Assembly: GCA_903896595.1 (NCBI GenBank)
Contig: CAITYL010000398.1
Location: 7,084 to 71,083, forward strand
Reading direction: 5' to 3'
From: an uncultured Lentisphaerota bacterium
Lineage (GTDB): Bacteria; Verrucomicrobiota; Lentisphaeria; Oligosphaerales; CAITYL01
Length of the DNA stretch: 64,000 bases
Both the position numbers and the translations under genes were made by a program. Under the pieces are notes generated by a model. That model ran no database searches. It was not told the DNA's origin and was given only the letters and a program-made list of their open reading frames with translations. Shown one piece after another: positions 3,048 to 54,094 of this stretch; position 1 is the first letter of the stretch; each line of letters starts with the position of its first letter.

Positions 3048-3992
3048 ATGGCCAAACAACACTACGAAGCCAAAAACGAGCGCATTCGGGCCGCCTTCCA
3101 GGAGCTCCGAAAAACCCATCCTGAGCGGACGAAGCGGCGCCTGGCGCTGTCCTGGAGCAACTGGGGCTTCGGCCGGGAGCCACTGGCGGACTCCGCGGCA
3201 CGCCTCCAGGCGGCCGGCATCCGACATATCGAACTGCATGGCAACCATTACGGGCCGGACCTGGGTTACCGCCCGGCCGAAACCCTGAAGATCCTGGGCG
3301 ACCATGGTCTGGCGGTGGCCGGCGTTTGCGGCATGTTTTCGGCGGACAACGATCTCTCCAGCAACCGGGCCGGCCACCGGCAGGCCGCCCTTGATTATAT
3401 CCGGCGCGAACTCGACTTCACCGCCGCGGTGGGCGGCAGCTATCTGCTGGTGGTGCCGGGCGCGGTCGGCCGACCGGCCAAGTACGATGATGCCGAGTTT
3501 GACCGCAGTGTGGAAACGCTCCAACTGGTGGCTGACCGCTTCGTTGAGCGCGGCATCCAGGCGGCGGTCGAGCCGATCCGCGCCGCCGAGGTCAGTTTCT
3601 GCCATACCATTGCCGACGCCAGGCGCTATCTTGACGCCGTCAACCATCCCGGCATCCAACATATCAATGGCGACGTCTATCACATGCAGGTCGGCGAGGC
3701 CCATATACCTTCGGCCCTGCTGGAGGCTGGCGACCGCCTGGTCAACCTGCACCTGGCCGACAGCAACCGCTGCGCCTTGGGCGACGGCGCGCTGGACCTC
3801 GACACCCTCATCATGGCGCTGTATCTGCTGGGCTTCAACCGGGACGGCTGTTACGCCACTCCCGAACCGCTCGGCCCCGGCGGCGACCCCTACCCCGCCA
3901 TGCACGGCAAGCCGAACCCGGCGGTGCTCGACCGCCTGGTGCAACAAACCGCCACCTATTTCCGCGAACGCGAAAACGCCATCCTGGCCTGA
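3048..3992 (+). CDS. sugar phosphate isomerase/epimerase (xylose isomerase-like TIM barrel)
   Basis: Motif pattern of the AP-endonuclease-2/xylose-isomerase-like barrel: IRHIELHG, YLLVVPGAVG, AAVEPI, NLHLADSNR. Start moved from the track start (2988) to ATG 3048; AGGAG at 3029-3033. Confidence 0.8.
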   Translation: MAKQHYEAKNERIRAAFQELRKTHPERTKRRLALSWSNWGFGREPLADSAARLQAAGIRHIELHGNHYGPDLGYRPAETLKILGDHGLAVAGVCGMFSADNDLSSNRAGHRQAALDYIRRELDFTAAVGGSYLLVVPGAVGRPAKYDDAEFDRSVETLQLVADRFVERGIQAAVEPIRAAEVSFCHTIADARRYLDAVNHPGIQHINGDVYHMQVGEAHIPSALLEAGDRLVNLHLADSNRCALGDGALDLDTLIMALYLLGFNRDGCYATPEPLGPGGDPYPAMHGKPNPAVLDRLVQQTATYFRERENAILA

Positions 3993-4006
3993 TCGAGTTT
4001 CGATTA

Positions 4007-4208
4007 TGTTGGGAACCCCCTTTTAAGGAAAGGCGGTTCCCAAACCCTCCGTCAAACCTGTTTGTACCTTTTGCGGATTCCGCAGGCCGCCCATGTGCGG
4101 CAGGCCATGATTGGGACATGTGGGGCGGCCTGCGGAATCCGCAAAATGAAACAAAAGTTTTGGGAAGGGGTTTGGGGAGCACCCTTTTCCAAAAGGGTGG
4201 CCCCAACA
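4007..4208. repeat. ~200-bp palindromic MITE-like intergenic element, copy 1
   Basis: Termini tgttgggaaccccc ... ggccccaaca are inverted. The inner 21-22-bp perfect stem is ttgcggattccgcaggccgcc(c) 4071-4092 with (g)ggcggcctgcggaatccgcaa 4123-4144. Near-identical copy at 29468..29653. Confidence 0.85.
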
Positions 4209-4225
4209 AATTTGAGGTATTGCGA

Positions 4226-5870: not shown

Positions 5871-6542
5871 ATGAACAATCCCCCGCCGCCGTCGCTGGCC
5901 GTCTTCAGCCACTGGCAAGGAAAAAGCTGGAACGCCCTGGGCGACAGCATTACCGAGTTTGACCAGTACCAGCCCAGGGTCCAGGCGGTGCTTGGTTTCA
6001 AACGGGTTGCCAATTACGGAAAAATCGCCACGGAGATCTGCGACGGCAAAAGCCCCCAGTCGTCGGACCAGGCCCTCTACGGCTTGCCGATGAGCATCCG
6101 TTATGCCGAGATGGACACGGCCGCCGACCTGGTGACGGTGTTTGGCGGCACCAACGATTTCGGCCACAACGAACCGCTGGGCACCCTCTCCGACACCACG
6201 CGCGCCACCTTTTACGGGGCGCTCAAGGTCATGCTGGAAGGCATCATCACGGCCAACCCGGCGGCCCGGGTGGCCATTTTCACGCCGCTGCAGCGGACCT
6301 TTGCCGGCGATCCCGGAGTGACCGGCATGACCAACGCCCTGGGCCTGCAACTGGTTGATTACGCCAACGCGATCCTGGAAGTGGCGGCCAGCTATTCGGT
6401 GCCCGTGCTGGACCTCTACCGGACAGCCGGCATTTCGCCGCAAAATGCAGCCTGTTTTCTGGCCGACGGCATTCACCCCAACGCTGCCGGTTATGAACGC
6501 ATCGCAAGACAAATGGCCCAGTTTCTAAACCGCATCGCCTAG
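5871..6542 (+). CDS. SGNH/GDSL family hydrolase
   Basis: Block I GDSITE, block III GGTNDFG, block V DGIHPNAAGY. Start set to ATG 5871, after the previous stop at 5806. Confidence 0.85.
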   Translation: MNNPPPPSLAVFSHWQGKSWNALGDSITEFDQYQPRVQAVLGFKRVANYGKIATEICDGKSPQSSDQALYGLPMSIRYAEMDTAADLVTVFGGTNDFGHNEPLGTLSDTTRATFYGALKVMLEGIITANPAARVAIFTPLQRTFAGDPGVTGMTNALGLQLVDYANAILEVAASYSVPVLDLYRTAGISPQNAACFLADGIHPNAAGYERIARQMAQFLNRIA

Positions 6543-6561
6543 TACCTCATAAAGCTTAAAT

Positions 6562-6753
6562 ATTCACCACGAAGGCACGAAGGACGCGAAGTTTGATCGA
6601 AGAGTTTCGAAGAAAATTCAAGTATAAAAAGCGATCTCACATTTCGCACGGTTTGAAACATTCTGACTACTGGCTACTGAATTCTGGCTACTTTTGCAAT
6701 TTCCTCAAGCCTCTTCGATTTATCTTCGTGCTCTTCGTGTCTTCGTGGTGAAT
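6562..6753. repeat. triplet-unit hairpin element (arms attcaccacgaaggcacgaaggacgcgaag / cttcgtgctcttcgtgtcttcgtggtgaat)
   Basis: 30-nt arms at 6562-6591 and 6724-6753 are reverse complements with 4 mismatches, 3 of them G-T. Each arm is three tandem 8-nt units (cacgaagg-like). A further pairing is tcgaagag 6597-6604 with ctcttcga 6711-6718. Confidence 0.85.
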
Positions 6754-6785
6754 CAGAACGTCTTACTGTTACAAGGAACCATGTC

Positions 6786-9167
6786 ATGAGCATCAAACCT
6801 GTCCCCGCACCCGCAACCGCCTTCGCCTTGGGCGGCGAGATTGGCCGCCGGCTCGCGGCGGTGACCCAGCAGTGGCTGCTGCCGGCGCCGTTCGCCAATC
6901 CCGGCCTGCTGGAAATGTTCCGCTACCGGGACCGGCAACCCTACGCCAACCAGGTGCCGTGGGCGGGCGAGTTCGCCGGCAAATACCTGACCCATGCCGT
7001 GCAGATCCTGCGCCTCACCGGCGACCCGCAGTTGCGGGACCACCTGGCTTGGTTCGTCTCGGAACTGGTCAGCCTCCAGGCCGAGGACGGCTACCTCGGC
7101 CCCTGGCCCCAGGCGTGGCGTCTGCGTTCGGGCGCGCCCAATTGTTCCGACCTGGTTTGGGACGCCTGGGGCCATTACCACGCCATGCTCGGCCTGCTGT
7201 TCTGGCACCAGTACAGCGGCGATGCCAACGCCCTGGCCTGCGCCCGGCGCATTGGCGACCTCTTCTGCAACCGTTTCCTTGGCAACACCGGCGAAACCCT
7301 GCACGGCACCGGCTGCCAGGAAATGAACCTGGCGCCGGTCCATTCCCTGGCTTGGCTGCACCGCCTCACCGGCGAGCCACGCTATTTGGAGCTGGCGCGG
7401 CAGATCACCGGCGAGTTCGCCATCCCCCCCGCCGGCGACTACCTGCGCGCCGGCCTGGCCAATACCCCCTTTTGGCAGACGCCGAAACCGCGCTGGGAAA
7501 GCCTGCACCCCATCCAGGGGCTGGCCGAGCTCTGGCGGACCACGGGCGACGACCAATACCGCCGCGCTTTCACCAGCCTGTGGCAAAGCATGCGCGACGG
7601 CGACCGCCACAACAACGGCGGTTTCACCTCGGGCGAACAGGCCACCGGCAATCCCTACGACCGCGGCGCCATCGAGACCTGCTGCACCGTCGCCTGGTCG
7701 GCCATGAGCGTGGACATGCTGGAACTCAGCGGCGACTCGCGGGTCGCCGACGAACTGGAGTTGAGCCTGTTCAACTCCGGCCTCGGCCTGATCTCGCCCT
7801 CGGGGCGCTGGGTGACCTACAACACGCCCATGAACGGCGAACGGCAGGCCAGCGCGCACACCATCGTCTTCCAGTCCCGCGCCGGCACCCCGGAACTCAA
7901 CTGCTGCTCGGTCAACGGCCCGCGCATGCTGGGACTGCTCGCCGAATGGGCGGTGCGCGCCCGTGACGGCGGCATCGACCTCAATTACTACGGTCCTGGC
8001 CAAATCACCGTCACCACCCCGGGCGGCGCGCGGTTGCGGCTCGACCAGGAAACCGATTATCCCCGCACCTCCGGTGTCCACCTCCGCCTCGACTTAACCG
8101 CACCGGAAACATTTCCGCTACGGTTGCGCATTCCCGCCTGGTCGCGAGAAACCCGGGCCCGGCTCAACGGCCACAAGCTCGCCCAACCGGTTCCCGGCCA
8201 GTACATGGAACTCAAACGGACCTGGCAGGCTGGCGATCAGGTCGAACTGGATTTCGACTTTACCCCGCACCGCTGGGTCAATGAGAGCATGCTGACGATT
8301 GCCGACGACTGGATCACCCGGTGGCGACTGTTCGGCCTGGTCCCGCGGCGCGCCGGGGAAATGGACACCAATCTGCGGCCGGCACTCCAAATGGCGCCCG
8401 CGCTGGAAAGCCTCACGGAGATGCCGAACCGGCTGGAGATCAACGGCCAGACTTATGACGCGGTGACCGCCGAAAGCACCCATGGCATCCTGAACGGCAA
8501 GGCCGTTTTCCCGGAGTTTCAGGGGCTGCCACCGTCCCTGGTCGGGTTCACCGAACTCACCGTTGCCGGCGCCCAAACGCTTACCGTAAATTTTGGTCCC
8601 GACTGGTGGATCAGCTGGTACGTCAACGGCGAACGCGTTTTTGACGGCACCGGCATCGGGTCGTTCGACGACCGGCCGTGCCTGGTCCGGCTGCCCCTGC
8701 GCGCCGGCCGCAACGTGATCGCCTTCCAAATGGGCGGCGGCACCTCCCGCCACTGCTGGCTGAGCCTGGCCCGGGGCCGCCTCGCGGGCGAGCCGCCCAG
8801 TGCCTGCCCGCCCCACCAGCCGGTCTCCGTCTACCGCGGCCCCATCCTGCTGGCCTACGACCCGCGGTTCAATCCCGGCCGCGACTGTCCCGCCGCGCCC
8901 CCGCCGTTGCCGGCCGCCGTTCCGGAACTGACGCCGTGCGAGTGGCCGCAATGGCTCAAACCATGGCTGCTCTTCCGCACCGCTGCGGCGGACGGCGGCG
9001 CGGTCACGCTCTGCGACTTCGCCAGTGCCGGCCAGGCCGGCGGCCAGCCCTACACCAGCTGGCTGCCCGTGGCCGTGCCCAAGGCCGGCCCCCTCCACAG
9101 CGACTCCCCGTTCGCCACCGACATCAGCAGGCCAAACCACGCCGTTGGTCCGCCACCATCGCCATGA
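6786..9167 (+). CDS. GH127-like (DUF1680) beta-L-arabinofuranosidase family protein with extra C-terminal beta-sandwich domain
   Basis: ETCCTVAW and PELNCCSVNGPR resemble the Glu/Cys zinc site and Cys-Cys catalytic region of HypBA1-type GH127 enzymes (from memory). Also GEFAGKYLTHAVQ and WESLHPIQGLAELW. The last ~230 aa form an additional domain. Confidence 0.8.
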   Translation: MSIKPVPAPATAFALGGEIGRRLAAVTQQWLLPAPFANPGLLEMFRYRDRQPYANQVPWAGEFAGKYLTHAVQILRLTGDPQLRDHLAWFVSELVSLQAEDGYLGPWPQAWRLRSGAPNCSDLVWDAWGHYHAMLGLLFWHQYSGDANALACARRIGDLFCNRFLGNTGETLHGTGCQEMNLAPVHSLAWLHRLTGEPRYLELARQITGEFAIPPAGDYLRAGLANTPFWQTPKPRWESLHPIQGLAELWRTTGDDQYRRAFTSLWQSMRDGDRHNNGGFTSGEQATGNPYDRGAIETCCTVAWSAMSVDMLELSGDSRVADELELSLFNSGLGLISPSGRWVTYNTPMNGERQASAHTIVFQSRAGTPELNCCSVNGPRMLGLLAEWAVRARDGGIDLNYYGPGQITVTTPGGARLRLDQETDYPRTSGVHLRLDLTAPETFPLRLRIPAWSRETRARLNGHKLAQPVPGQYMELKRTWQAGDQVELDFDFTPHRWVNESMLTIADDWITRWRLFGLVPRRAGEMDTNLRPALQMAPALESLTEMPNRLEINGQTYDAVTAESTHGILNGKAVFPEFQGLPPSLVGFTELTVAGAQTLTVNFGPDWWISWYVNGERVFDGTGIGSFDDRPCLVRLPLRAGRNVIAFQMGGGTSRHCWLSLARGRLAGEPPSACPPHQPVSVYRGPILLAYDPRFNPGRDCPAAPPPLPAAVPELTPCEWPQWLKPWLLFRTAAADGGAVTLCDFASAGQAGGQPYTSWLPVAVPKAGPLHSDSPFATDISRPNHAVGPPPSP

Positions 9168-9546
9168 CATCTTCGTATTCGCGGCAAACCAGGGAAAAAA
9201 AGGCGGCGGTCTGCTCGGAATCGTTCTTGCACAGGAACCGGCCCCGAAGAGCTTCGAACGCCAAGATGGGATCGGCTTGGTTCAGCACCACCAGATCCAC
9301 TTTTTCCACGCCGGGAAGCTGGTCGCAAAGGTCCGTGTAAAACCGGAGAAATTCATCGGCGGCGGGCGGCCGGTCAAACAAGACCGCCACGTCCAGATCG
9401 CTGCCGGACTGCATCCACCCGTCCCTGGCCGAGCCAAACACGGTGGCGGCGACTACTCGGGGAGCCGCCGCCAAATAACTTTCCAGGCGCGCCAAATCCA
9501 CCGCCGTCCCGGAACGCGGGGTGGTTGTCTCAGCCTTGGCGTTCAT
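9124..9546 (-). CDS. mntA: MntA-type minimal nucleotidyltransferase (antitoxin of HEPN/MNT module)
   Basis: VFGSARDG ... SDLDVAV nucleotidyltransferase motif (GS-x10-DxD). Start chosen at ATG 9546 (track start 9585 is also possible). Overlaps hepT by 17 nt and the convergent GH127 gene by 44 nt. Confidence 0.75.
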   Translation of the reverse strand: MNAKAETTTPRSGTAVDLARLESYLAAAPRVVAATVFGSARDGWMQSGSDLDVAVLFDRPPAADEFLRFYTDLCDQLPGVEKVDLVVLNQADPILAFEALRGRFLCKNDSEQTAAFFSLVCREYEDVMAMVADQRRGLAC

Positions 9547-9946
9547 GCGGCTCAACCTCGCGGGTAAAATGGTCGAAATCGTCAAGGCATTGGTTGACGA
9601 CCATCACCAGGATGTCCGTGTCAATTTGTTCATAGCGATGCACGATCAAATTCCTGAACTTGATCATGTTGCGGTAGCGTTCGGCATCGACCAAAACATG
9701 CAAATCCTGCAACTGCCGCAACGAGGCGAACGAGTCGGTGGAAACCGGCCGATTCTCCAAACAGATAATGCGGTTGGCAACATCGATCATGGCTTCAATG
9801 CAAACTTGCAACGTGCGCTCAATCCCGCTGCGCAGGAAGAAGTCATTTTCAAGCGTCGCCCGGGTCAGCGGCGCCAACCCCCGCAAGCGTGACACATGCT
9901 GCCCGATCAGATCCAGTTTGCGGGCCACCACGCCATTGTATTTCAT
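9530..9946 (-). CDS. hepT: HepT-type HEPN (DUF86) toxin
   Basis: R-x4-H HEPN motif in FRNLIVHRY and DUF86-like length. Start set to ATG 9946 (MKYNGVVARK, GGGGG about 8 nt upstream). The track N-terminal extension to 10201 is low-complexity. Confidence 0.75.
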   Translation of the reverse strand: MKYNGVVARKLDLIGQHVSRLRGLAPLTRATLENDFFLRSGIERTLQVCIEAMIDVANRIICLENRPVSTDSFASLRQLQDLHVLVDAERYRNMIKFRNLIVHRYEQIDTDILVMVVNQCLDDFDHFTREVEPHERQG

Positions 9947-10158
9947 AACCATTGCCCCCGATCTTTTACAAATACTATATAACTCAAGAACCCGGTGGTG
10001 TCCAACCTCGAATGGTATTAAAAAGTACGGCGTTTCCCCACAGCCGGGAGCCGCCCGGCCCGGGCGGAATGTTGGCGTCATTCCGATGCCGCCCTCCGGA
10101 ATGGGGCTACCCCCATCCATCCTCAGACACGTCGGACATGTCCGACAGGTCGGAAGCG

Positions 10159-12234
10159 TCAGAGGACGCCAGTTGCCCGGGCAAGGCGCAGCAGCGCGCA
10201 ACTATGGGCGGGCACTTCCAGCGCCAGGGTGCCGGCGGCGCGGCTGTGGAAGCGGCCCGTCCACACGTCATGCACATCCACGGCCGCGTCAGGGGCAAAA
10301 CCAGCCTGGGATAAAGTCACTTGCAGCACCGTTGCGGAGTCCGCAAAATTGAACAGGCCCAGCACCTCGGCCGGGGCGGCCGGCGCGCGGCCCTTGCGCC
10401 AGCCCGCCCAGACGGCGGGAAACTCGCGCTCGAAAAAATCCAGGGGCCGGGTGTCGAACGAATCCCGCTCGGCCACCAGCCAGCGCGACCATTTTTCCCG
10501 TTCCGGGGCCAGGGTGGCAAAGCGGTCGCTGAGCAGGATCAGGCCGCCGGTCAGCCACAGGGCGGCGGTCCACAGGCGCACCTCGTTATCGGTCAGTGAG
10601 TTGTGGTCGGCGCGCACCAGATGCACATCGGGGTCGTTGAGCCACAGGCGCCCGTGCATGTAGCGGCGGTTGATGATGTTGCGGCAGACATTGGGCAGAC
10701 ACGGCGCCTCCTTGGGCAACGGCTGCCGGTCCGGTTTCCAATAGGGGGTGATGTCGGTGCCGATGCGTTCGCCATCAACGATGCCGACCGCCGGCCCCAG
10801 CAGGGTGGTGCCGCCCAGGATGAAGCGCTCGCCGCCAAAGCCGTCCCGGATCGCCTGCAACCCGCGCCGGCAGGCCTGGGCGCGGGTCGCCTTGGGATCC
10901 CCATAAACCCCGTCCTTGACCGCGCATTCGTACATCAGGAAATCGAGTTTGACGTAGTCATAGCCCCAGGCGGCCAGAGTGGCGAACAGCGAACGCAGCC
11001 ACGCCTGGGCCTCCGGCCGAGTACAGTCCAGCACCGCGACGCGCGAGCCCCGCCACTCGGTCGTCCAGGCGGTTTCGCCGGCCGGCGTCCGGACCATCCA
11101 GTCGGGGTGCGCGGCATAGAGGTGCGAGCGTTCCTCCACCATGAACGGCGCCAGCCACAGCCCCGGCTTGCAACCGGCCGCGCGGATGTCGCGGGCCAGC
11201 GTTTCCGGGCCGTTCGGGAACGAGGGGCTGGGCTCCAGCCAGTCGCCCAGGGCGCGCTGGAATCCGTCGTCGATCTGCACGTACTCCAGCGGCAGCTCCG
11301 CCCGGCGTTCCCGGATCAGGCGCAGGTTCTCCTGCACATCGGCGTCAGTGATCTTCTCGAAGTAGTAATACCAGCTGCACCAGCCGCTTGGAGTATGGTT
11401 CCAAATGCGGGCGTGCATCCGGGCGCCCCAGAGCGTGGCAAACTCCTCCAGCAAGCCGTAACCGTCGGAACCGGCCAGGAGCGCCAGGGTTTCCGAGGCG
11501 ACCGTCTCGCCCGGATCGACGCGGATGCCGTCCGCATAGGCATAGGCGGCAAAGCGGGTAACGCCCGCGTCATCCAGTTCCACGGCGAGACGCGTCACCT
11601 GGTCGGCGGAAGTGATGAACCCGGCCAGCAGGGACGCCCCCGACACGCGGTCGTTGAGCACCACGGCATACTCGGCGGAAAAACGGTTGGGGGTGATGCT
11701 GTCATACGCCGCCGGTGCGGAGACCGCAAACGGCAAGTAACCGGGATCCAAGTCAAAATCGCATTCGCCATAACGCACCGTGCCAGCGGCGGCGGCAGCC
11801 GTCCAGCCTTCGCGGTAGAGCCGCAGGCGCGGTCCGGGAACGGCCAGAAAATCATCCGCCGCCCCGCCGGGCGCCCGCTGCTGCTGGAAGCGGAACCCGC
11901 CGAAACGGATGGCCGCGCCACTGGCGTTCTCGATCCGGGCCTGGAGTTCATGGTGCCGCCGGCCATGTCCGGCCGGCCTGAGGGAGAACCGGACACCAAT
12001 ACCCGCCATGGTTGCCGTGCCCGCGCCGTCGGGGGCGACGGCCCACCGGTCCGGTTCCCGCCACTGTCCGTCGATCTCGACCGCCAGGCGGAGATCGGTG
12101 AAGAGCCGCTCCACGGGCCGTGCTTCACTCGCAACGGCAGGCACGGGCCAGCCCACCCGCAGGCCGCTGCCGCCATTTTTCCAAGCCGTGCCCGTCGAAT
12201 TGGTTTTGTTCTCGGAAATAGCCATGCGGATCAT
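10159..12234 (-). CDS. GH36 alpha-galactosidase (Thermotoga GalA-like)
   Basis: GWCSWYYYF ... EYVQIDDGFQRALGDW ... GLWLAPF ... YVKLDFL closely parallels TmGalA-type GH36 motifs. Start ATG 12234 forms an ATGA overlap with the upstream stop at 12231-12233. Confidence 0.85.
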   Translation of the reverse strand: MIRMAISENKTNSTGTAWKNGGSGLRVGWPVPAVASEARPVERLFTDLRLAVEIDGQWREPDRWAVAPDGAGTATMAGIGVRFSLRPAGHGRRHHELQARIENASGAAIRFGGFRFQQQRAPGGAADDFLAVPGPRLRLYREGWTAAAAAGTVRYGECDFDLDPGYLPFAVSAPAAYDSITPNRFSAEYAVVLNDRVSGASLLAGFITSADQVTRLAVELDDAGVTRFAAYAYADGIRVDPGETVASETLALLAGSDGYGLLEEFATLWGARMHARIWNHTPSGWCSWYYYFEKITDADVQENLRLIRERRAELPLEYVQIDDGFQRALGDWLEPSPSFPNGPETLARDIRAAGCKPGLWLAPFMVEERSHLYAAHPDWMVRTPAGETAWTTEWRGSRVAVLDCTRPEAQAWLRSLFATLAAWGYDYVKLDFLMYECAVKDGVYGDPKATRAQACRRGLQAIRDGFGGERFILGGTTLLGPAVGIVDGERIGTDITPYWKPDRQPLPKEAPCLPNVCRNIINRRYMHGRLWLNDPDVHLVRADHNSLTDNEVRLWTAALWLTGGLILLSDRFATLAPEREKWSRWLVAERDSFDTRPLDFFEREFPAVWAGWRKGRAPAAPAEVLGLFNFADSATVLQVTLSQAGFAPDAAVDVHDVWTGRFHSRAAGTLALEVPAHSCALLRLARATGVL

Positions 12235-14438: not shown

Positions 14439-14568
14439 GTGAGCCTCTTGCAAAACTCCGATTACCGGTTCAATGCCCATCCGAGCCGCGAACGAAGCGA
14501 CCGCAGGGAGCGAAAGTGACCGGTCAAAAAGCATCCACTTTTCTTAGTTCCGTCATGATTTTTATTTT

Positions 14569-14662
14569 CCCGCAGAGGCGCGGAGGCGCAGAGAAACAGC
14601 CAAGTCAAATTTTGCCATGATGCCTGACCTGATTTTTCTCCGCGCCTCTGCGCCTCTGCGGG
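14569..14662. repeat. triplet-unit hairpin element (cccgcagaggcgcggaggcgcagagaaa / tttctccgcgcctctgcgcctctgcggg)
   Basis: 28-nt arms at 14569-14596 and 14635-14662 are complementary at 26 of 28 positions, with a 38-nt loop. Arms are three cgc(a/g)gag(g/a) units. Confidence 0.85.
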
Positions 14663-14728
14663 AGATAATTCGTAACTGAAGGTCGAATGCTGAAGGATGG
14701 CAACCGTGGGTTTTGCAAGAGCCTCATG

Positions 14729-22505: not shown

Positions 22506-22550
22506 TCCCTTACTGGTGAGACTCTTGCAAAACCATCGACAAAGAACTTA

Positions 22551-22611
22551 AACAGGAGAAATCAGGAGAGAACGGAGAACAACTTCTCTGTGGCCTCTGC
22601 TGCCTCCTGTT
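22551..22611. repeat. imperfect triplet-unit hairpin (aacaggagaaatcaggagagaacggagaa / ttctctgtggcctctgctgcctcctgtt)
   Basis: The outer 8 bp and inner 7-8 bp pair perfectly, the middle is imperfect, and the loop is 4 nt. Lies 46 nt upstream of the GH2 start on the minus strand. Confidence 0.55.
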
Positions 22612-22693
22612 CAAAATCCAGAACATCCGGTTCCTTCCGAGCCCGGAACGTTAGTGACGGGTCAACGGTAACCGTTCCGGAAAAGCTGGCATG

Positions 22694-22717
22694 AAAAAGC
22701 GGCAAAGGAATTGCCGC
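22694..22717 (-). terminator. rho-independent terminator after the pseudopilin-like gene
   Basis: On the minus strand: gcggcaa-ttcct-ttgccgc (7-bp perfect stem, 5-nt loop) followed directly by ttttt. Confidence 0.6.
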
Positions 22718-22759
22718 ACTCCAAAAACGGGTTCACACTTCAAATTGATTTCAAAATTA

Positions 22760-22842
22760 ACCGCAAAGATCGCAGAGATCGCAAAGATAAAACAATCTAA
22801 AAATACGCCATTACTCTTTGTGTTCTTTGCGTTCTTTGTGGT
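22760..22842. repeat. triplet-unit hairpin element (accgcaaagatcgcagagatcgcaaagat / ctctttgtgttctttgcgttctttgtggt)
   Basis: 29-nt arms with a 25-nt loop. Mismatches are mostly G-T or T-T. Units are cgca(a/g)aga(t). Confidence 0.8.
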
Positions 22843-22875
22843 AAAATAAAAAATCAAGTTGAACTTTAATTGGAA

Positions 22876-23514: not shown

Positions 23515-23565
23515 GGTGGATGCCCTTGGGGGGGGACGTTTTGGGACACGGGCCAAGGCAAGGGA

Positions 23566-23793
23566 GCAATGGGACCTATAGGACATCTGGGACCTAGGGG
23601 GGCACTAACCTGAATTATTCACGACCCAAATGATGACGTCCATTGTAGCAAAGCGATTGCATCGCGCTCTTCGAGTTGCCACATCCCGATTGGGCGGGCT
23701 ACAAGCCCTTTGCTACACTCATGAATAATCCAGGCTAACGCCCCGGCCGTGGTTTCATCCTGTGCCCCATCGGTCCCATTGGTCCTATAGGTC
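23566..23793. repeat. long nested inverted-repeat structure in the PEP-CTERM/pseudopilin intergenic region
   Basis: Outer arms gggacctataggacatctgggacctaggggggcac (23570-23604) and gtgccccatcggtcccattggtcctataggtc (23762-23793). Inner pairs are attattca/tgaataat and tgtagcaaag/ctttgctaca, plus small hairpins gcgat-tgc-atcgc and gggct-aca-agccc. Confidence 0.75.
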
Positions 23794-26226: not shown

Positions 26227-26262
26227 AAAGCACCACTCCCCGCACCCGGTAACCTTGATTTT

Positions 26263-26347
26263 TTCACCGCGAAAGAACGCAGAGAGCGCGAAAGAAAAAT
26301 CTGTACACGTATTTCTTTCGCGATCTTTTGCGTTCTTTCGTGGTGAA
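26263..26347. repeat. triplet-unit hairpin element (ttcaccgcgaaagaacgcagagagcgcgaaagaaa / tttctttcgcgatcttttgcgttctttcgtggtgaa)
   Basis: ~35-nt arms with one bulge and a few G-T pairs; 14-nt loop aatctgtacacgta. Shares the ttcacc(a/g)cgaa terminus with 6562..6753 and 39698. Confidence 0.85.
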
Positions 26348-26358
26348 TCGGATCATTT

Positions 26359-27860: not shown

Positions 27861-27942
27861 GCTGGATTGCGACCGAGATGGTTAATTGATTAATTTCAGA
27901 ACCTTCAATTTTCCGTACTTCCGTTTTTCCGTGTCATGCCGC

Positions 27943-29322: not shown

Positions 29323-29467
29323 GATAGCATCCTCGTCGCAGAGGGTCTCGCCCAATTCAAGAACCCATCCGGGCAGCCCCGGCACAGGCAAAAGGAAATA
29401 TACCCGTGCCGGACCAGCTTTGCGTCACCGGACGATTCCCCGGATGGATGACCGTTTTGTTGGACAA

Positions 29468-29653
29468 TGTTGGGAACCCCCTTTTGAGGAAAGGCGGTTC
29501 CCAAACCCTCCGTCAAACCTGGTTGTGCCTTTTGCGGATTGCGCAGGCCGCCCCTGTCGTCCCAATCATGACCTGTCGCGCGAAAGCTGCCTGCGCAATC
29601 CGCAAAAAACAAAAGTTTTGGGAAGGGGGTAGGAAAACCCTTTTTCGGGGTGT
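29468..29653. repeat. palindromic MITE-like intergenic element, copy 2
   Basis: The left arm is almost identical to 4007..4090. The inner stem is ttgcggattgcgcaggc 29532-29548 with gcctgcgcaatccgcaa 29589-29605. The central segment is the reverse complement of that in copy 1. Confidence 0.85.
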
Positions 29654-29655
29654 CA

Positions 29656-29946
29656 TTACGTTCTCTGCTGAAGTGTCCTGAGCGCCTCCGTAAATGACTC
29701 ACACAGGTCATATAGACATGCTTGATCTTTGCCAAAATCTCTATCAAGCAATCCACCCATTCCGCCAAGAGGAACTTGCTCGAGAAGTTTGATGGCTGCG
29801 CGGTGATTCCCCCATTCGCGAAATTCTTTGATCGGTCTTTCAAATGTTTGGTCCCAACATGCCACACTGTGTTCATGTAGAAATCGAAGGAGTGCATCGA
29901 TTCGATCAAGTAGCCGTCTGACATCTGGATTAGTTGATGCGTCCAT
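29656..29946 (-). CDS. small hypothetical protein
   Basis: 96-aa ORF in a lower-GC islet. Protein-like helical composition with GGMGGLLDRDFG. No family recognised. Confidence 0.5.
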   Translation of the reverse strand: MDASTNPDVRRLLDRIDALLRFLHEHSVACWDQTFERPIKEFREWGNHRAAIKLLEQVPLGGMGGLLDRDFGKDQACLYDLCESFTEALRTLQQRT

Positions 29947-35401: not shown

Positions 35402-36454
35402 TCACGTTGTCACCTCCGCCACCACAGCGGCGGCTTCCCGCAACACCCGCTCCGTATCATCCCATCCCAAGCAGGCATCCGTCACCGATAATCCCGCCTG
35501 GGGCTTGCCCCCGGCGGGAATTTCCTGACGCCCACCCAGCAAATGGCTCTCCAACATGAAACCGCGAATGACCTCCGCGCCACCACGAACTTGCGCCAGC
35601 ACGTCTTGCAACACCACAATCTGGCGTTGCGGATCTTTGCCGGAATTCGCGTGACTGCAGTCCACAATCAGATTGGGGTCCACCCCCATTTTACTCAACA
35701 GCTCCTGCGCCAAGACGATATGCTCTGAGGTGTAGTTGGGCCCCTCATACCCGCCGCGCAAGACCAGATGCCCAAAACGATTGCCACGCGTGCGGAAAGT
35801 GGCCACCCGCCCGTCACCGGTCACCCCAATGAAGGTGTGGGGCGAAGCCGCCGTGCGAATGGCGTCCACCGCCACCTTCATGCTGCCGTCCGTGGTGTTT
35901 TTGAACCCGATCGGCATGGACAACCCGCTGGCCATCTGCCGATGCGTCTGGCTCTCGGTGGTCCGGGCGCCAATGGCCGCCCACGACACTAAGTCCGTAA
36001 AGTACTGGGGCACCACCGGCTCCAAAATTTCCGCCCCGGCCGGAACGCCGAGTTCATTGATATCCAAGAGAATGCGCCTGGCCAGCCGCAGCCCGGCTTC
36101 GATGTCGCAGGTGTCATTCATGGCGGGGTCATAGATCAACCCCTTCCAGCCCAACGTGGTGCGCGGCTTCTCGAAATAAACCCGCATCACCACCAGCAAC
36201 TGCCGCTCCAATTCACGGGCCAGCCGGCGCAGCCGGGTGGCGTATTCAACCGCATCCTCGCGGCTGTGAATCGAGCAGGGCCCGACAATGGCGATCAGCC
36301 GGCGGTCGCGCTGGCTCAGAATATTCTCCAGCCCTGCCCGCGCCATCACCACCGTATCGGCCGCCCGCGCGGTCAACGGCAATTCGGTCTTGATCGCGTC
36401 TGGAGGCGTTAACGGCGCGAACCGCTCGATTCTTAAATTGTCTGTGCGTACCAT
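35402..36454 (-). CDS. aroG: class I (AroG/F/H-type) 3-deoxy-7-phosphoheptulonate (DAHP) synthase
   Basis: Collinear with E. coli AroG from memory: GPCSIH, VMRVYFEKPRTT.GWKGLI.DP, GARTTESQ.HR, GFKN.TDG, DCSHANS. Start set to ATG 36454 (MVRTDNLRIERF). Isozyme specificity unknown. Confidence 0.9.
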   Translation of the reverse strand: MVRTDNLRIERFAPLTPPDAIKTELPLTARAADTVVMARAGLENILSQRDRRLIAIVGPCSIHSREDAVEYATRLRRLARELERQLLVVMRVYFEKPRTTLGWKGLIYDPAMNDTCDIEAGLRLARRILLDINELGVPAGAEILEPVVPQYFTDLVSWAAIGARTTESQTHRQMASGLSMPIGFKNTTDGSMKVAVDAIRTAASPHTFIGVTGDGRVATFRTRGNRFGHLVLRGGYEGPNYTSEHIVLAQELLSKMGVDPNLIVDCSHANSGKDPQRQIVVLQDVLAQVRGGAEVIRGFMLESHLLGGRQEIPAGGKPQAGLSVTDACLGWDDTERVLREAAAVVAEVTT

Positions 36455-36512
36455 CCGTGATCTTTCTTCCCCAACCCGACCACAACTCAAACCGTGAAAT
36501 TAACCGCCGCCC

Positions 36513-36584
36513 AACCCCTCAACCCCTCAACCCCTCAACCCCTCAACCCCTCAACCCCTCAACCCCTCAACCCCTCAACCCCTA
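36513..36584. repeat. 8-nt tandem repeat (aacccctc)x8 plus one degenerate unit; G-rich (gaggggtt)n on the minus strand
   Basis: Eight perfect units at 36513-36576 and aaccccta at 36577-36584. Lies 5 nt after the stop of 36589..37347 and 59 nt upstream of the DAHP synthase ATG. Confidence 0.95.
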
Positions 36585-36588
36585 CCCC

Positions 36589-37347
36589 TCAGAACGACAC
36601 CTTCACATCCCCCGTCATGCGGATCGGCGGCGGAATCAGCTTGAGCCCGGCCGGCGTCGCCCAGTCCCGCTCCCAGCTTCGCAGCAACAACGGCCCGGTC
36701 GGCGGCCCCCAAGGGTTGAGATCCACCAGCAACAGACGCTTGTCCGAGGTCAGATAGACATCGGCCACCAAGGTGTCCGCCGGCCACCCGGACGCCAGGC
36801 GCGCGGCAAACTCCAAGCCGCGCTCCCAAATCTCTCCAGTCCGCCCCGCCAGTCGGCGAAAATGACGTTCCAGGCAGTACTGGCTCATTGCGGCCAATTG
36901 CCGCCGGTGAATAAACAGCCGAAATTCGCGGGCCCGGTCCATGCGCCGAAAAGGGCGCACCACCAACCGGGTGGAATGCCCCTCACTCAACGCCGTCCGC
37001 ACCTGTGGACTGGTTGCCAGCAACCGCCAAGCGGTGGAGGCGGTAAAAATCCCGCGTCGCGCCTGGTACAGCGGACTGTCGGTCGGGGCGCACACATCCG
37101 CGTTCACCACACAGGCCCCGGTGAAGGCGCCCATCCCCTGTCGCAACGCCTCCACTCCCGTTCGCGCCGCGGCCGAAACGTCGTCTCCAGCCAGCAACGC
37201 CTGAATGGTGTCTGCTGACAGGGGAATGAAAACGCTGGGAAAGGTCACGTTCCCCAACGAGGCATACCACGATGAAATAGGAAAAAAATGCGGTTCCACG
37301 CTAATGCCACCCACCCAACAATCCAAAAAACCGACTCGCATGCACAA
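36589..37347 (-). CDS. CDC123/D123-like ATP-grasp family protein
   Basis: ISSWYASLGNVTFPSVFIPL, REFRLFIHRRQLAAMSQYC and VADVYLTSDKRLLLVDLNPWGPPTGPLLLRSWERDW parallel the eukaryotic Cdc123 blocks (SWY..f, EWRCFV...L.aISQ, DVYi...kv.LIDfNPf...TDpLLFsW.EL) as I recall them. Confidence 0.6.
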   Translation of the reverse strand: MCMRVGFLDCWVGGISVEPHFFPISSWYASLGNVTFPSVFIPLSADTIQALLAGDDVSAAARTGVEALRQGMGAFTGACVVNADVCAPTDSPLYQARRGIFTASTAWRLLATSPQVRTALSEGHSTRLVVRPFRRMDRAREFRLFIHRRQLAAMSQYCLERHFRRLAGRTGEIWERGLEFAARLASGWPADTLVADVYLTSDKRLLLVDLNPWGPPTGPLLLRSWERDWATPAGLKLIPPPIRMTGDVKVSF

Positions 37348-38170: not shown

Positions 38171-38456
38171 GCTCAGCCGTGCCTGGGGCCAGGGCCTCCT
38201 CCCCGTCGCCGCCGCCTCCGTGCGAACTCCGCAAACGTGGTTCCGCGATGGCTGGGACGGACTCAGTGCCGAAGGCTTCACCGCCGACGGCCGCCTGCTG
38301 CTCTCGAATCTGCGCGCCGCGCCAACCACCTTTACCCTGACCGCCGCCGCGCCCGCTTGGGAAATCCAGGCGGTGGACGGCACTTCCCGCCTCACTGCCG
38401 CCCACCAACTCACCCTCAACCCCTGTGAACTGGCACTGGCCAAGGAATTAGTCTGA
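38163..38456 (+). pseudogene. possible C-terminal remnant of a glycoside hydrolase beta-sandwich
   Basis: The open frame reads ...WFRDGWDGLSAEGFTADGRLLLSNLRAAPTTFTLTAAAPAWEIQAVDG ... LTLNPCELALAKEL, like the C-terminal ends of the hydrolases in this window. No credible N-terminus. Confidence 0.25.
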
Positions 38457-38516
38457 CTTGTCCGACTGGTCTGACTTGTCCGACAACCCCCAACCACTCA
38501 CCAGCGTTCAAATCAC

Positions 38517-39672: not shown

Positions 39673-39697
39673 AACCTTGTAAAACTTAAAACGTCGG

Positions 39698-39778
39698 ATT
39701 CACCACGAAGACAAATCGAAACGATGTTTTTGGTGCTCATTTTTTGACCGCGGATTACGCGGATTAACGCGGATAAAA
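39698..39778. repeat. degenerate triplet-unit arms (attcaccacgaagaca ... gtttttggtg; ccgcggattacgcggattaacgcggataaaa)
   Basis: The 39698-39740 segment is a collapsed version of the attcaccacgaag hairpin, followed by ctcatttttt. The 39748-39778 segment is a lone three-unit arm (cgcggatta) with no partner nearby. Confidence 0.6.
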
Positions 39779-40094: not shown

Positions 40095-41342
40095 TTGACC
40101 CGGCGCTGGATGACGCCTGACTCCAAGTATCACGGACAGCATCCCTACGGCGCTCAGTATATCTGGGATACCCTGTTCATGCTCGAACCGCTCTGCCTGC
40201 TTCCCGGGCAGACCGAGGTTGTCCGAGAGGTGCTGCGCAACTTCTGGGAGTTCCAAGATGCCTGGGATGCCATCGTCCCGGAACACGCTCGCGGTATGAT
40301 CCAACATGGCTTCCACCCCGATGCCTTTCTGCCCACCGCCTGCAAAGGCAACAGTTGCAGCCCTTGGCTGGCCTGGGGCGTGGAGCGGATTTACAACCAC
40401 ACTGGCGATGAAACCATGGCGCATGAAGCGTTGCCGCACCTGGAACGCTACCACGACTGGTACTGGCGCGAGCGCGACCTCGATGGCATCGGCCTCATCG
40501 CCCCCGGCGCCTATGGCACCGACCAGGTGCAAGCGATGCGCGACGACTCCGGCTACGATTTTGCCGCTGACATGGACGCGCTGGCCTACATCCAGCATCC
40601 GCGTTTCCCAGAGCGCGGCGCGGCGTACGGCAATCTCTACGGCGTCACCAATACCGCCTACGTCGTCCACGCCGAACGCTGCCTCCAGCGGCTGGCGGCA
40701 AAACTGGGAGACCACGCCATGGCCGCCCGTCGCGACAGCCACCTTCAAAAAGCCGTGGCGGCAGCCCGGGAGAGAATGTGGAATGAGGAGACCGGCATGT
40801 TCCATACCCTCCGCCGCGACGGTGGCAAAGTCCCAACCTTGACCATCGGTGCGTTCATGATGCTTCTGGCGCAAGTTCCAACCCCGGCGCAGGCGGAGCG
40901 CATTCTCGGAAATTTGCGAACGCCGAATTGGCTGACCCCGCTGCCGATGCCCACCGTTGGCCGCGGCGATCCCAAATGGGAGCCCGCCACCATTGGCATG
41001 TTGCCAAACCCGCCCGTGCGGCTGGACCACCTCGGCCAGGCCTACAACATGTGGCGCGGCGACGTCTGGCCACCGTGCAATTACCAAGTCGCCATGGGTG
41101 CAGCGGCGTACGGTGCCACCGATCTTGCGGCCCGCATCTGCGATGCCACGGTGATGAACGCCATTCAGTGGGACGACGTCAACGAGCGCTACTGTTGCGA
41201 TACCGGCCGCCCGCTCGGCCCCTCGGACTACGGCATGTCCGCCTGCGTGTTGAGCATGGTCTATGACGGCCTGCCCCAGCGCTATGGCGCAACCAATACA
41301 TTCACCACGAAGCCACAAAGATCAGGACAGCGTTTCTCATGA
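40095..41342 (+). CDS. GH63/trehalase-like six-hairpin glycoside hydrolase
   Basis: YIWDTLFMLEP, SPWLAWGVERIY and NMWRGDVWPPCNY fit GH63/MGH-like (alpha/alpha)6 enzymes. The frame is open from 39891 with no ATG/GTG/TTG before 40095, so the true N-terminus is uncertain. The antisense 441-aa ORF was rejected. Confidence 0.75.
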   Translation: MTRRWMTPDSKYHGQHPYGAQYIWDTLFMLEPLCLLPGQTEVVREVLRNFWEFQDAWDAIVPEHARGMIQHGFHPDAFLPTACKGNSCSPWLAWGVERIYNHTGDETMAHEALPHLERYHDWYWRERDLDGIGLIAPGAYGTDQVQAMRDDSGYDFAADMDALAYIQHPRFPERGAAYGNLYGVTNTAYVVHAERCLQRLAAKLGDHAMAARRDSHLQKAVAAARERMWNEETGMFHTLRRDGGKVPTLTIGAFMMLLAQVPTPAQAERILGNLRTPNWLTPLPMPTVGRGDPKWEPATIGMLPNPPVRLDHLGQAYNMWRGDVWPPCNYQVAMGAAAYGATDLAARICDATVMNAIQWDDVNERYCCDTGRPLGPSDYGMSACVLSMVYDGLPQRYGATNTFTTKPQRSGQRFS

Positions 41343-53990: not shown

Positions 53991-54094
53991 AACCGCAGAG
54001 TGACGAATATTGAGGTCCGAATAACGAAGGAAATCAACTGAAAAACAGCAACGACCTCAAGATTCTGCGGTTCAACATTCGGCAATCTGCGGTT
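53991..54094. repeat. structured lower-GC spacer with alternative pairings
   Basis: aaccgcaga (53991-53999) can pair with tctgcggtt (54064-54072), or, over its first 8 nt, with the second ctgcggtt (54087-94). Other pairs are ttgaggtc/gacctcaa (54010-17/54053-60) and ccgaat/attcgg (54017-22/54077-82). Confidence 0.5.

Follow-up and report, generated by a model that had tools for sequence, protein, structure and literature searches.

A family of intergenic hairpins with inverted arms of tandem heptamers in Lentisphaerota DNA and in distant bacterial lineages

REP, BIME and REPIN sequences, GTAG- and CGTC-tagged families among them, are palindromes mobilised by RAYT (Y1 HUH) transposases and dispersed as short intergenic elements with no target-site duplications (PMC3733652). 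They are often nested or mosaic, lie near gene ends and form single-strand hairpins, and the elements described here resemble them in all of these respects. However, REP and REPIN sequences have an unpaired GTAG or CGTC tag at one end of a palindrome of 20-40 nt, whereas the present elements carry no tag (alignment A4) and their TTCACC/GGTGAA termini are paired. The REP stem is one helix of 10-15 bp, while the arms here comprise 25-30 nt of three tandem heptamers with mismatched spacers. A further difference from REP is that one element sequence is found here in three phyla. REP repeats typically flank their cognate RAYT gene, but no RAYT gene was seen in the 64 kb of this genome and the short loci that were compared.

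Bacterial MITEs (Correia/CREE, ERIC, Nezha and RUP) are likewise non-coding sequences of 70-150 nt with terminal inverted repeats, co-transcribed with their neighbours and present as copies in unrelated loci. The present elements differ from them in lacking a target-site duplication and in that the terminal repeats are the tandem arrays themselves; no candidate for a parent insertion sequence was found in the loci examined. Cyanobacteria have short tandem heptamer repeats (STRR). Together with the TAACTGA repeats of Beggiatoaceae, Cyanobacteria and Bacteroidetes (PMC4679880), STRR sequences share with our elements the 7-nt unit, the short intergenic tandem array and a patchy distribution across phyla. 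The TAACTGA repeats comprise 169 direct sets and one inverted set (PMC4679880). Both kinds are direct arrays, whereas each array of our elements pairs with an inverted copy of itself and has spacers between its units. Integron attC sites, which are recognised as a folded single strand and not by sequence, are similar in that they, too, are imperfect palindromes, contain core boxes of 7 bp and leave some positions deliberately unpaired. They have two pairs of RYYYAAC/GTTRRRY boxes, while our elements have three box pairs, and neither the termini (TTCACC) nor the cores (CACGAAG) fit the attC boxes. Unlike attC, our elements lie dispersed among ordinary housekeeping and metabolic genes, in every orientation, and have neither an integrase nor a cassette array in their vicinity. 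The likeness to Rho-independent terminators lies in the stable stem-loop downstream of genes, but the elements have no U-tract, occupy divergent regions too and can share a locus with a canonical terminator. The family is REP/MITE-like in behaviour and distinct in architecture.

The window, that is, the whole 64-kb stretch of DNA that was analysed, has a GC content of 61%, many glycoside hydrolases and one encoded DUF1559/N-methyl protein. Its rhamnosidase showed 72% identity to a protein named as that of a Victivallaceae bacterium and 73% identity to that of a relative of the window organism (L209). Judging by the first of these matches, the organism is probably a Victivallaceae-like member of the Lentisphaerota. 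A search for relatives with ArgH returned two at 65-67% identity, and neither of these nearest relatives carries the elements. The negative control was also drawn from the ArgH search and consisted of 80 diverse bacterial loci (~1.4 Mb). When relatives were compared on the basis of the rhamnosidase, synteny was not kept, and the only locus with an orthologue (L210) was one with GGGACC-type arms. Gene calls on the contig L001 also placed a HepT-like/nucleotidyltransferase (MNT) toxin-antitoxin pair on the minus strand of the window at 9124-10201.

The elements and related features of the window are collected in Table 1. Family membership was defined by a TTCACC-type terminus and by arms that each hold at least two to three CRCRRAG cores, spaced at 8-9 nt, with the inverted partner array no more than 220 nt away. 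The 6562, 14568, 22757 and 26263 elements belong to the family on this definition, and the 22551 element does so under the covariance model R1 only. The remnants at 39699 and 41301 and the hairpin at 53991 fall outside it; the latter, which was not recovered by R1, is a possible distant family member.

Table 1. Hairpin elements, remnants and adjoining features in the window, with the evidence for each, the folding of the interval and the genomic context
Feature	Position	Strand	Evidence	Folding	Context
CACGAAG-type element	6562..6753	.	Tandem-unit array, terminus, fold	6558-6757: -78.2 kcal/mol, z -7.7	GDSL lipase gene and GH127 gene, both + strand
CGCRGAG-type element	14568..14663	.	3+3 units, 38-nt loop, arms 93% complementary; R1 E 6.5e-5 (14563-14668)	14565-14666: z -8.6	Between two glycoside hydrolase genes, minus strand
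Short CAGGAGA/CRGAGA-type element	22551..22611	.	4-nt loop; R1 E 2.2e-5 (22545-22617)	22548-22614: z -5.2	Downstream of canonical terminator, upstream of start of 1761-aa GH2 gene (minus strand)
Canonical intrinsic terminator, GCGGCAATTCCTTTGCCGC then TTTTT	22699..22717	-			Between elements 22551 and 22757
CGCAAAG-type element	22757..22846	.	3+3 units of 9 nt; R1 E 1.8e-14 (22754-22848)	22755-22846: z -8.9	3' untranslated region of DUF1559 gene (minus strand), upstream of DUF1559 terminator
Hairpin with tandem arms of unrelated 9-nt units (GGGACCTAT)	23563..23793	.		z -4.6	
CGCGAAAG-type element, TTCACC/GGTGAA termini	26263..26347	.	R1 E 2.4e-12 (26260-26350), terminus, fold	26260-26350: z -9.95	hypA and IF-2B family gene, both minus strand
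Decayed remnant	39699..39740	.	Exact terminus TTCACCACGAAG kept, weak partner TTGGTG; no R1 match	39695-39745: no significant hairpin, z -0.77, equalled by 39 of 200 shuffles	
Solo left-arm remnant, TTCACCACGAAG-C-CACAAAG	41301..41320	+	Terminus search; no right arm		
Divergent hairpin, AACCGCAGAG/TCTGCGGTT terminus	53991..54094	.		z -3.6 (+ strand), -5.6 (- strand)	

Folding was performed on a single strand against 200 dinucleotide shuffles per locus, and for the loci at 6558, 14565, 22548, 22755 and 26260 none of the shuffles folded as well as the native sequence. The 12-nt terminus TTCACCRCGAAR, searched with its R variants and at most one mismatch, occurred 7 times in the window against 1.3 expected, a number that none of 100 shuffles reached. 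Arrays of at least three CRCRRAR units numbered eight in the window and corresponded to both arms of four hairpins, whereas none was present in the 1.4 Mb of control loci. The preliminary description of this DNA had assigned the loci to one family on the grounds of a common architecture and related termini, and the terminus counts, together with the recovery of four window loci by R1, uphold that assignment. It had also listed six hairpin loci; five of them fold beyond all shuffles (z -5.2 to -9.95), and the sixth, at 39698, is retained as a remnant only.

The element at 6562 illustrates the arrangement at full length. Its left arm reads TTCAC-CACGAAG-G-CACGAAG-GA-CGCGAAG (6563-6591), and its right arm is the inverse, with three cores at 6724-6747 and a GGTGAA terminus ending at 6752. 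The loop of ~130 nt contains more inner pairing (GATCGAAGAG/CTCTTCGAT). The contig L001 is identical to this element end to end, and L002 begins within the loop and matches from that point on. In fact, L002 and a third ENA contig, which come from independent metagenome assemblies of the same strain, both begin within this loop (window ~6654), 126-133 nt upstream of the GH127 gene, and assemblers appear to break at the inverted repeat. Spurious low-complexity mini-ORFs, which had been anticipated at such elements, did not materialise in the gene calls examined.

The canonical element spans 70-95 nt: a TTCACC terminus is followed by three 7-nt cores and a variable loop, after which these parts recur inverted. 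The core is CACGAAG, or more generally CRCRRAG, and the cores are separated by spacers of 1-2 nt. Exactly 3+3 cores were present in 76 of the 123 matches listed, which makes this the modal anatomy; across these 123, CACGAAG accounted for more than 90% of the core units and the cores were ~97% Watson-Crick paired. Loop length ranged from 9 to 74 nt among the matches listed and from 4 to ~130 nt in the window, and many copies resembling the one on a Binatia-like contig (L151) contain an inner GTTCGGA...TCCGAAC hairpin inside the loop.

The spacers follow a different rule from the cores. Among the matches listed they are purine-rich in the sense of the purine arm and have the same length on both arms in 171 of 186 pairs. 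Their complementarity, in copies that are not independent, is only 0.237 against 0.374 ± 0.029 by chance, with none of 5000 shuffles as low, and the opposed bases are mostly G-T and A-C. At the 22757 element the spacers are mismatched as T opposite T, and the stem of the + strand contains G-T pairs. As single-stranded DNA or RNA, the element folds into three 7-bp helices with symmetric 1x1 or 2x2 internal loops between them. A spacer 'swap' pattern (s1=t2, s2=t1) was statistically enriched and may be inherited from one abundant subfamily.

We then compared the arms and units of 24 elements that had not been chosen by a search pattern, at the variable R positions. The complementarity of an arm to its own partner was 0.871 versus 0.658 between elements, and none of 2000 permutations reached the observed value, in agreement with the earlier impression that each left arm matches its own right arm best. 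Neighbouring units of one arm showed an identity of 0.911. Since this likeness within an arm is as high as the complementarity between arms, the pattern is explained by unit duplication or concerted evolution and not by pair-by-pair compensation. Moreover, the spacers are less complementary than chance, and the arms are therefore not simple copies of each other. The likeness within an arm indicates that all six units of an element derive from a single one or have been homogenised to it. The preliminary description had suggested that arms are copied within each element, which holds in the form of unit duplication or concerted evolution and fails as simple arm copying. Its other suggestion, that structure is conserved rather than sequence, is contradicted by the CACGAAG heptamer and the TTCACC/GGTGAA terminus, which are kept in sequence in at least three phyla across contigs of 41-71% GC among the matches listed. 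We conclude that it is the units that evolve in concert, over a conserved core motif.

The distribution of the family was examined with the search pattern TTCACCRCGAA-N45-75-TTCGYGGTGAA, which gave 3 matches in viral contigs and at least 120 in metagenome contigs, with chance matches estimated at ~8. The taxonomy of the metagenome matches is based on two contigs: for a soil contig (L151), the closest named relatives of MutL were Candidatus Binatia and 'Deltaproteobacteria' MAGs (73-83% identity), and for a lake contig (L158), EttA matched a Methylococcaceae MAG protein at 100% identity and that of Methylobacter isolates at 97%. The model R1 was built from 59 non-redundant metagenomic elements only, none of them from the window. 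In the window it returned the intervals given in Table 1 and reached the 6562 element only in part because of its 130-nt loop. In 1.49 Mb of other loci it matched at three places only, namely in a Methylobacter psychrophilus isolate (L213, E 2.8e-11), in a gammaproteobacterial MAG (L078) and in L209. Unrelated control DNA of ~1.4 Mb gave no R1 match. From R1 and the contig placements, the family is therefore present in at least Lentisphaerota, a Binatia-like lineage and Gammaproteobacteria, with a patchy distribution. A search restricted to PVC genomes, as had been proposed, would have been too narrow, given that the elements are absent from the relatives found by ArgH and present in Methylobacter and Binatia-like contigs.

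A BLAST search of the element against plasmid and phage collections gave no match, although the low-complexity filter may hide matches. Rfam at gathering threshold identified one tRNA in the whole window and nothing at the element loci, and E-value scans of the elements gave only plant miRNA-precursor look-alikes, at no more than 39 bits against cut-offs of at least 80 bits. A full-text literature search for the element sequences returned unrelated papers only, and the literature on related descriptions yielded general accounts of REP sequences, heptamer repeats and hairpins and none of this element. The family is apparently undescribed so far, as the preliminary description had supposed.

The copies are intergenic, belong to every orientation class, and can be near-identical at unrelated loci with no target-site duplication. 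A near-identical 75-nt element, loop and spacers included, was found at six loci (L089, L158, L091, L125, L185 and L090). On either side, the shared element is extended by a further ~25 nt of palindromic flank, and the sequence further out is unrelated. A BLAST comparison of flanks revealed only four orthologous pairs among the 123 loci listed, and several single contigs bear two or three copies. Direct repeats of 0, 1, 2, 3 and 4 nt flanked 55, 34, 10, 1 and 4 elements among the matches listed, which is the chance level for T-rich and A-rich flanks. The flanks displayed only T-rich/A-rich and purine/pyrimidine trends, which look like decayed outer units. The flanking genes showed no enrichment: 139 proteins contained 195 Pfam families, none of which occurred in more than four proteins, and no transposase was among the 25 most frequent families listed. 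In the region downstream of EttA in Methylobacter strains, no clean pair of presence and absence was found, as the region is hypervariable.

Several side observations concern the Methylobacter-like contigs. There, the CACGAAG hairpin is the core of a composite palindrome of ~135 nt (L089 3-135; L091, L125, L185, L158) with the outer inverted repeat CCATAGACATCAACTTAA, and it is this entire composite that is dispersed. The ettA-downstream region of Methylobacter is crowded with other small palindromes of the CTCCCTCTCCCGCCGGGAGAGGG type (L158 5860-6200 and 8132-9067; L213 11760-12130). In L158, an Rpn-family (Transposase_31) nuclease gene is located ~2 kb away from the CACGAAG element.

Hairpins of the same architecture built from unrelated units are also present in family-carrying DNA. 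A hairpin-first detector located 22 such tandem-arm hairpins in ~0.9 Mb of family-carrying DNA versus one in the 1.4 Mb control. Examples of the units are CACAGAG, CGCAAAG, GTTCAANN, GAGGATN, GAGAGTT, TGGAGTRA, AGCTACG, GGGACCNAT and GGGACCTAT. In 17 of the 22, the 5' arm was richer in purines than the 3' arm (p = 0.017). Two tandem-arm hairpins were found in a Prosthecobacter MAG (L005). The presence of many hairpins with unrelated units in the same DNA means that one sequence-specific mobilising enzyme or transposase is an insufficient explanation.

Other repeats were noted in the same DNA. The loop of the hairpin at 23563-23793 contains a nested palindromic block of ~130 nt (23599-23744) that is absent at the orthologous L210 locus (6006-6172), while the outer GGGACC-unit arms show few differences between the window and L210. 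Within the block lies a GTAG-initiated, REP-like palindrome, TGTAGCAAAGCG...TTTGCTACA (23644-23717), which is an element apart from the family. From these sequences, it looks like one palindromic element inserted into the loop of another. A second, unrelated palindromic family of ~200 nt is represented by two copies (3990-4225 and 29455-29665) with common TTGGGAACCCCCTTTT.AGGAAAGGCGGTTCCCAA and TTTTGCGGATTSCGCAGGCCGCC arms and long near-identical stretches. A near-perfect tandem array, (CAACCCCT) x 10.2 with 94% matches (36512-36591), adjoins the DAHP synthase gene (35402-36490, minus strand) at its start; this direct repeat is STRR-like and lacks an inverted partner. Further solo arrays with no inverted partner are CGCGGATTA x 3 (39749-39774), TTCCGTNN x 3 (27911-27932) and GTCYGACTK x 4 (38451-38484), the last with a unit that is itself palindromic. 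L209 has similar solo arrays, CGCAGATGA x 3 and GCACTTTA x 4.

We put about even confidence in the reading that the elements form a dispersed, mobilised palindromic repeat family with tandem-heptamer arms that is REP/MITE-like in behaviour. The family would have spread by copy-and-paste through a factor acting in trans; with no target duplication and with hairpin ends, this resembles single-strand (HUH/RAYT-type) mobilisation. Once a copy is inserted, its six units would evolve in concert through slippage and intra-element template switching, and this may have given rise to the locus-specific CGCAGAG, CGCAAAG and CGCGAAAG flavours of the window. Within untranslated regions the elements would be passive, as stable interrupted hairpins that may modestly affect mRNA ends, and they are probably not the terminators of this organism. 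Several results argue against a mobile repeat: neither a mobilising gene nor an empty site was found in the window and the loci examined, the window copies have diverged strongly from each other, unlike the near-identical copies that follow a recent burst, and the co-occurring hairpins of unrelated units are not explained by one sequence-specific transposase. The conservation of sequence across phyla could reflect a conserved host factor instead.

Such a factor features in an unlikely alternative, in which the elements are functional structured RNA in untranslated regions (for example a 3'-end stabiliser or processing site) or a single-strand protein-binding array. The interrupted helix would then be the selected feature, and cold-shock proteins would be one candidate binder. 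Cold-shock proteins (CspB) prefer T-rich heptamers of the GTCTTTG/T kind. These resemble the pyrimidine arm, (G)TCTTCGTG / TCTTTGTG, and sequence conservation across phyla fits a universal host protein. The binding of cold-shock proteins to heptamer repeats has been discussed (PMC4679880). The equal spacer lengths and unpaired spacer bases of the matches listed also agree with this alternative, as they produce a regular geometry of 7-bp helices and symmetric loops.

The genomic position of the elements bears on the same question. The median distance among the matches listed was 33 nt to the upstream stop codon, which speaks for an RNA function, and 60 nt to the next start codon. On the minus strand at 22.5-22.9 kb, the order is gene stop, the element at 22760 (the 22757 element of Table 1), the terminator at 22717-22699, the element at 22551 and the start of the next gene; the first of these elements thus precedes the terminator in a 3' untranslated region, as an RNA function would have it. 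However, divergent, promoter-containing regions are occupied at the background rate: the 77 classified elements among the matches listed, as assigned with a crude ORF caller, lay in tandem, convergent and divergent contexts in 48, 17 and 12 cases versus 341, 96 and 90 in the background, and several divergent cases had long ORFs on either side. A test of positional bias relative to gene ends had been proposed at the outset; the 12 divergent cases show that divergent regions are not avoided. From the order at 22.5-22.9 kb and the divergent contexts, the elements therefore lie in untranslated regions and are not the terminators.

Strand tests gave no clear preference for the sense RNA. In the cores, G-U exceeded A-C by 15 to 7 on the sense strand, and the copy in L213 keeps its pairs via sense-strand G-U, both as expected of an RNA; but the excess is not significant, the spacers are symmetric (34 G-U to 32 A-C), and of the four window loci tested, three (22755, 26260 and 53988) form the better fold on the antisense strand. 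In addition, selection on structure alone does not predict like units within an arm.

The likeness of units would fit an origin of each locus in place, with no mobility, which we regard as unlikely. Here, slippage would make the tandem repeats and intrastrand template switching (quasipalindrome correction) the inverted partner. Consistent with such a local mutational by-product, all units of an element share one flavour, many unrelated units occur with one architecture in the same genomes, and solo tandem arms exist at 27911, 38451 and 39749 and in L209. It leaves unexplained, however, the same 12-nt terminus and heptamer in three phyla and the near-identical 75-nt copies at unrelated loci. 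Template switching would also give complementary spacers, while the observed ones are anti-complementary.

A broader proposal is that the CACGAAG elements and the co-occurring hairpins of unrelated units are products or substrates of one machinery that recognises the architecture and has been exchanged between phyla, which we consider distinctly unlikely. If it holds, the machinery might be a single-strand (HUH-type) enzyme recognising interrupted hairpins, or a break-repair or reverse-transcriptase-like activity by which a break acquires short tandem repeats at its two 3' ends. The latter option would directly yield inverted tandem arrays, the purine-rich strand 5' on both strands and no target duplication.

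It is very unlikely that the elements are double-stranded binding-site arrays for a regulator, partition or nucleoid protein (like iterons or MetJ/omega-type sites), with three direct and three inverted sites. The conserved 7-nt core with free spacers, the regular 8-9 bp spacing and the occurrence in divergent regions that contain promoters would suit such arrays. On the other hand, core sequences vary among the loci of one genome, and the genes next to the elements share no function. With loops of anywhere from 4 to ~130 nt, the two half-arrays would have no fixed phasing. Least credible of all is that these stable hairpins near stop codons are unusual intrinsic terminators lacking a U-tract, considering that no U-tract follows the hairpins, that 12 of the 77 classified elements among the matches listed lie between divergent genes as in the background, and that canonical U-tract terminators exist here, one of them directly beside the 22757 element. 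That terminator (22699-22717, minus strand) shows that the organism uses standard terminators, and the view of the preliminary description that the elements are not canonical terminators stands on the same three observations.

Returning to the reading of a mobilised, REP/MITE-like family, the elements, if mobile, would add a distinct architecture of tandem-heptamer arms and mismatched spacers to the few bacterial non-autonomous repeats. It is unusual for them to be conserved over such a range, from Lentisphaerota to Binatia-like bacteria and Methylobacter. In practical terms, they offer a marker for strain typing in poorly studied lineages, cause breaks in assemblies and may also give rise to spurious gene calls in metagenomes. 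The tandem-arm hairpins of unrelated units in element-bearing genomes are the main unexplained observation, and if one machinery does account for both kinds of hairpin, it would represent a new way to generate and spread bacterial repeats. As Methylobacter psychrophilus is cultivable and carries a copy, the family is experimentally testable.
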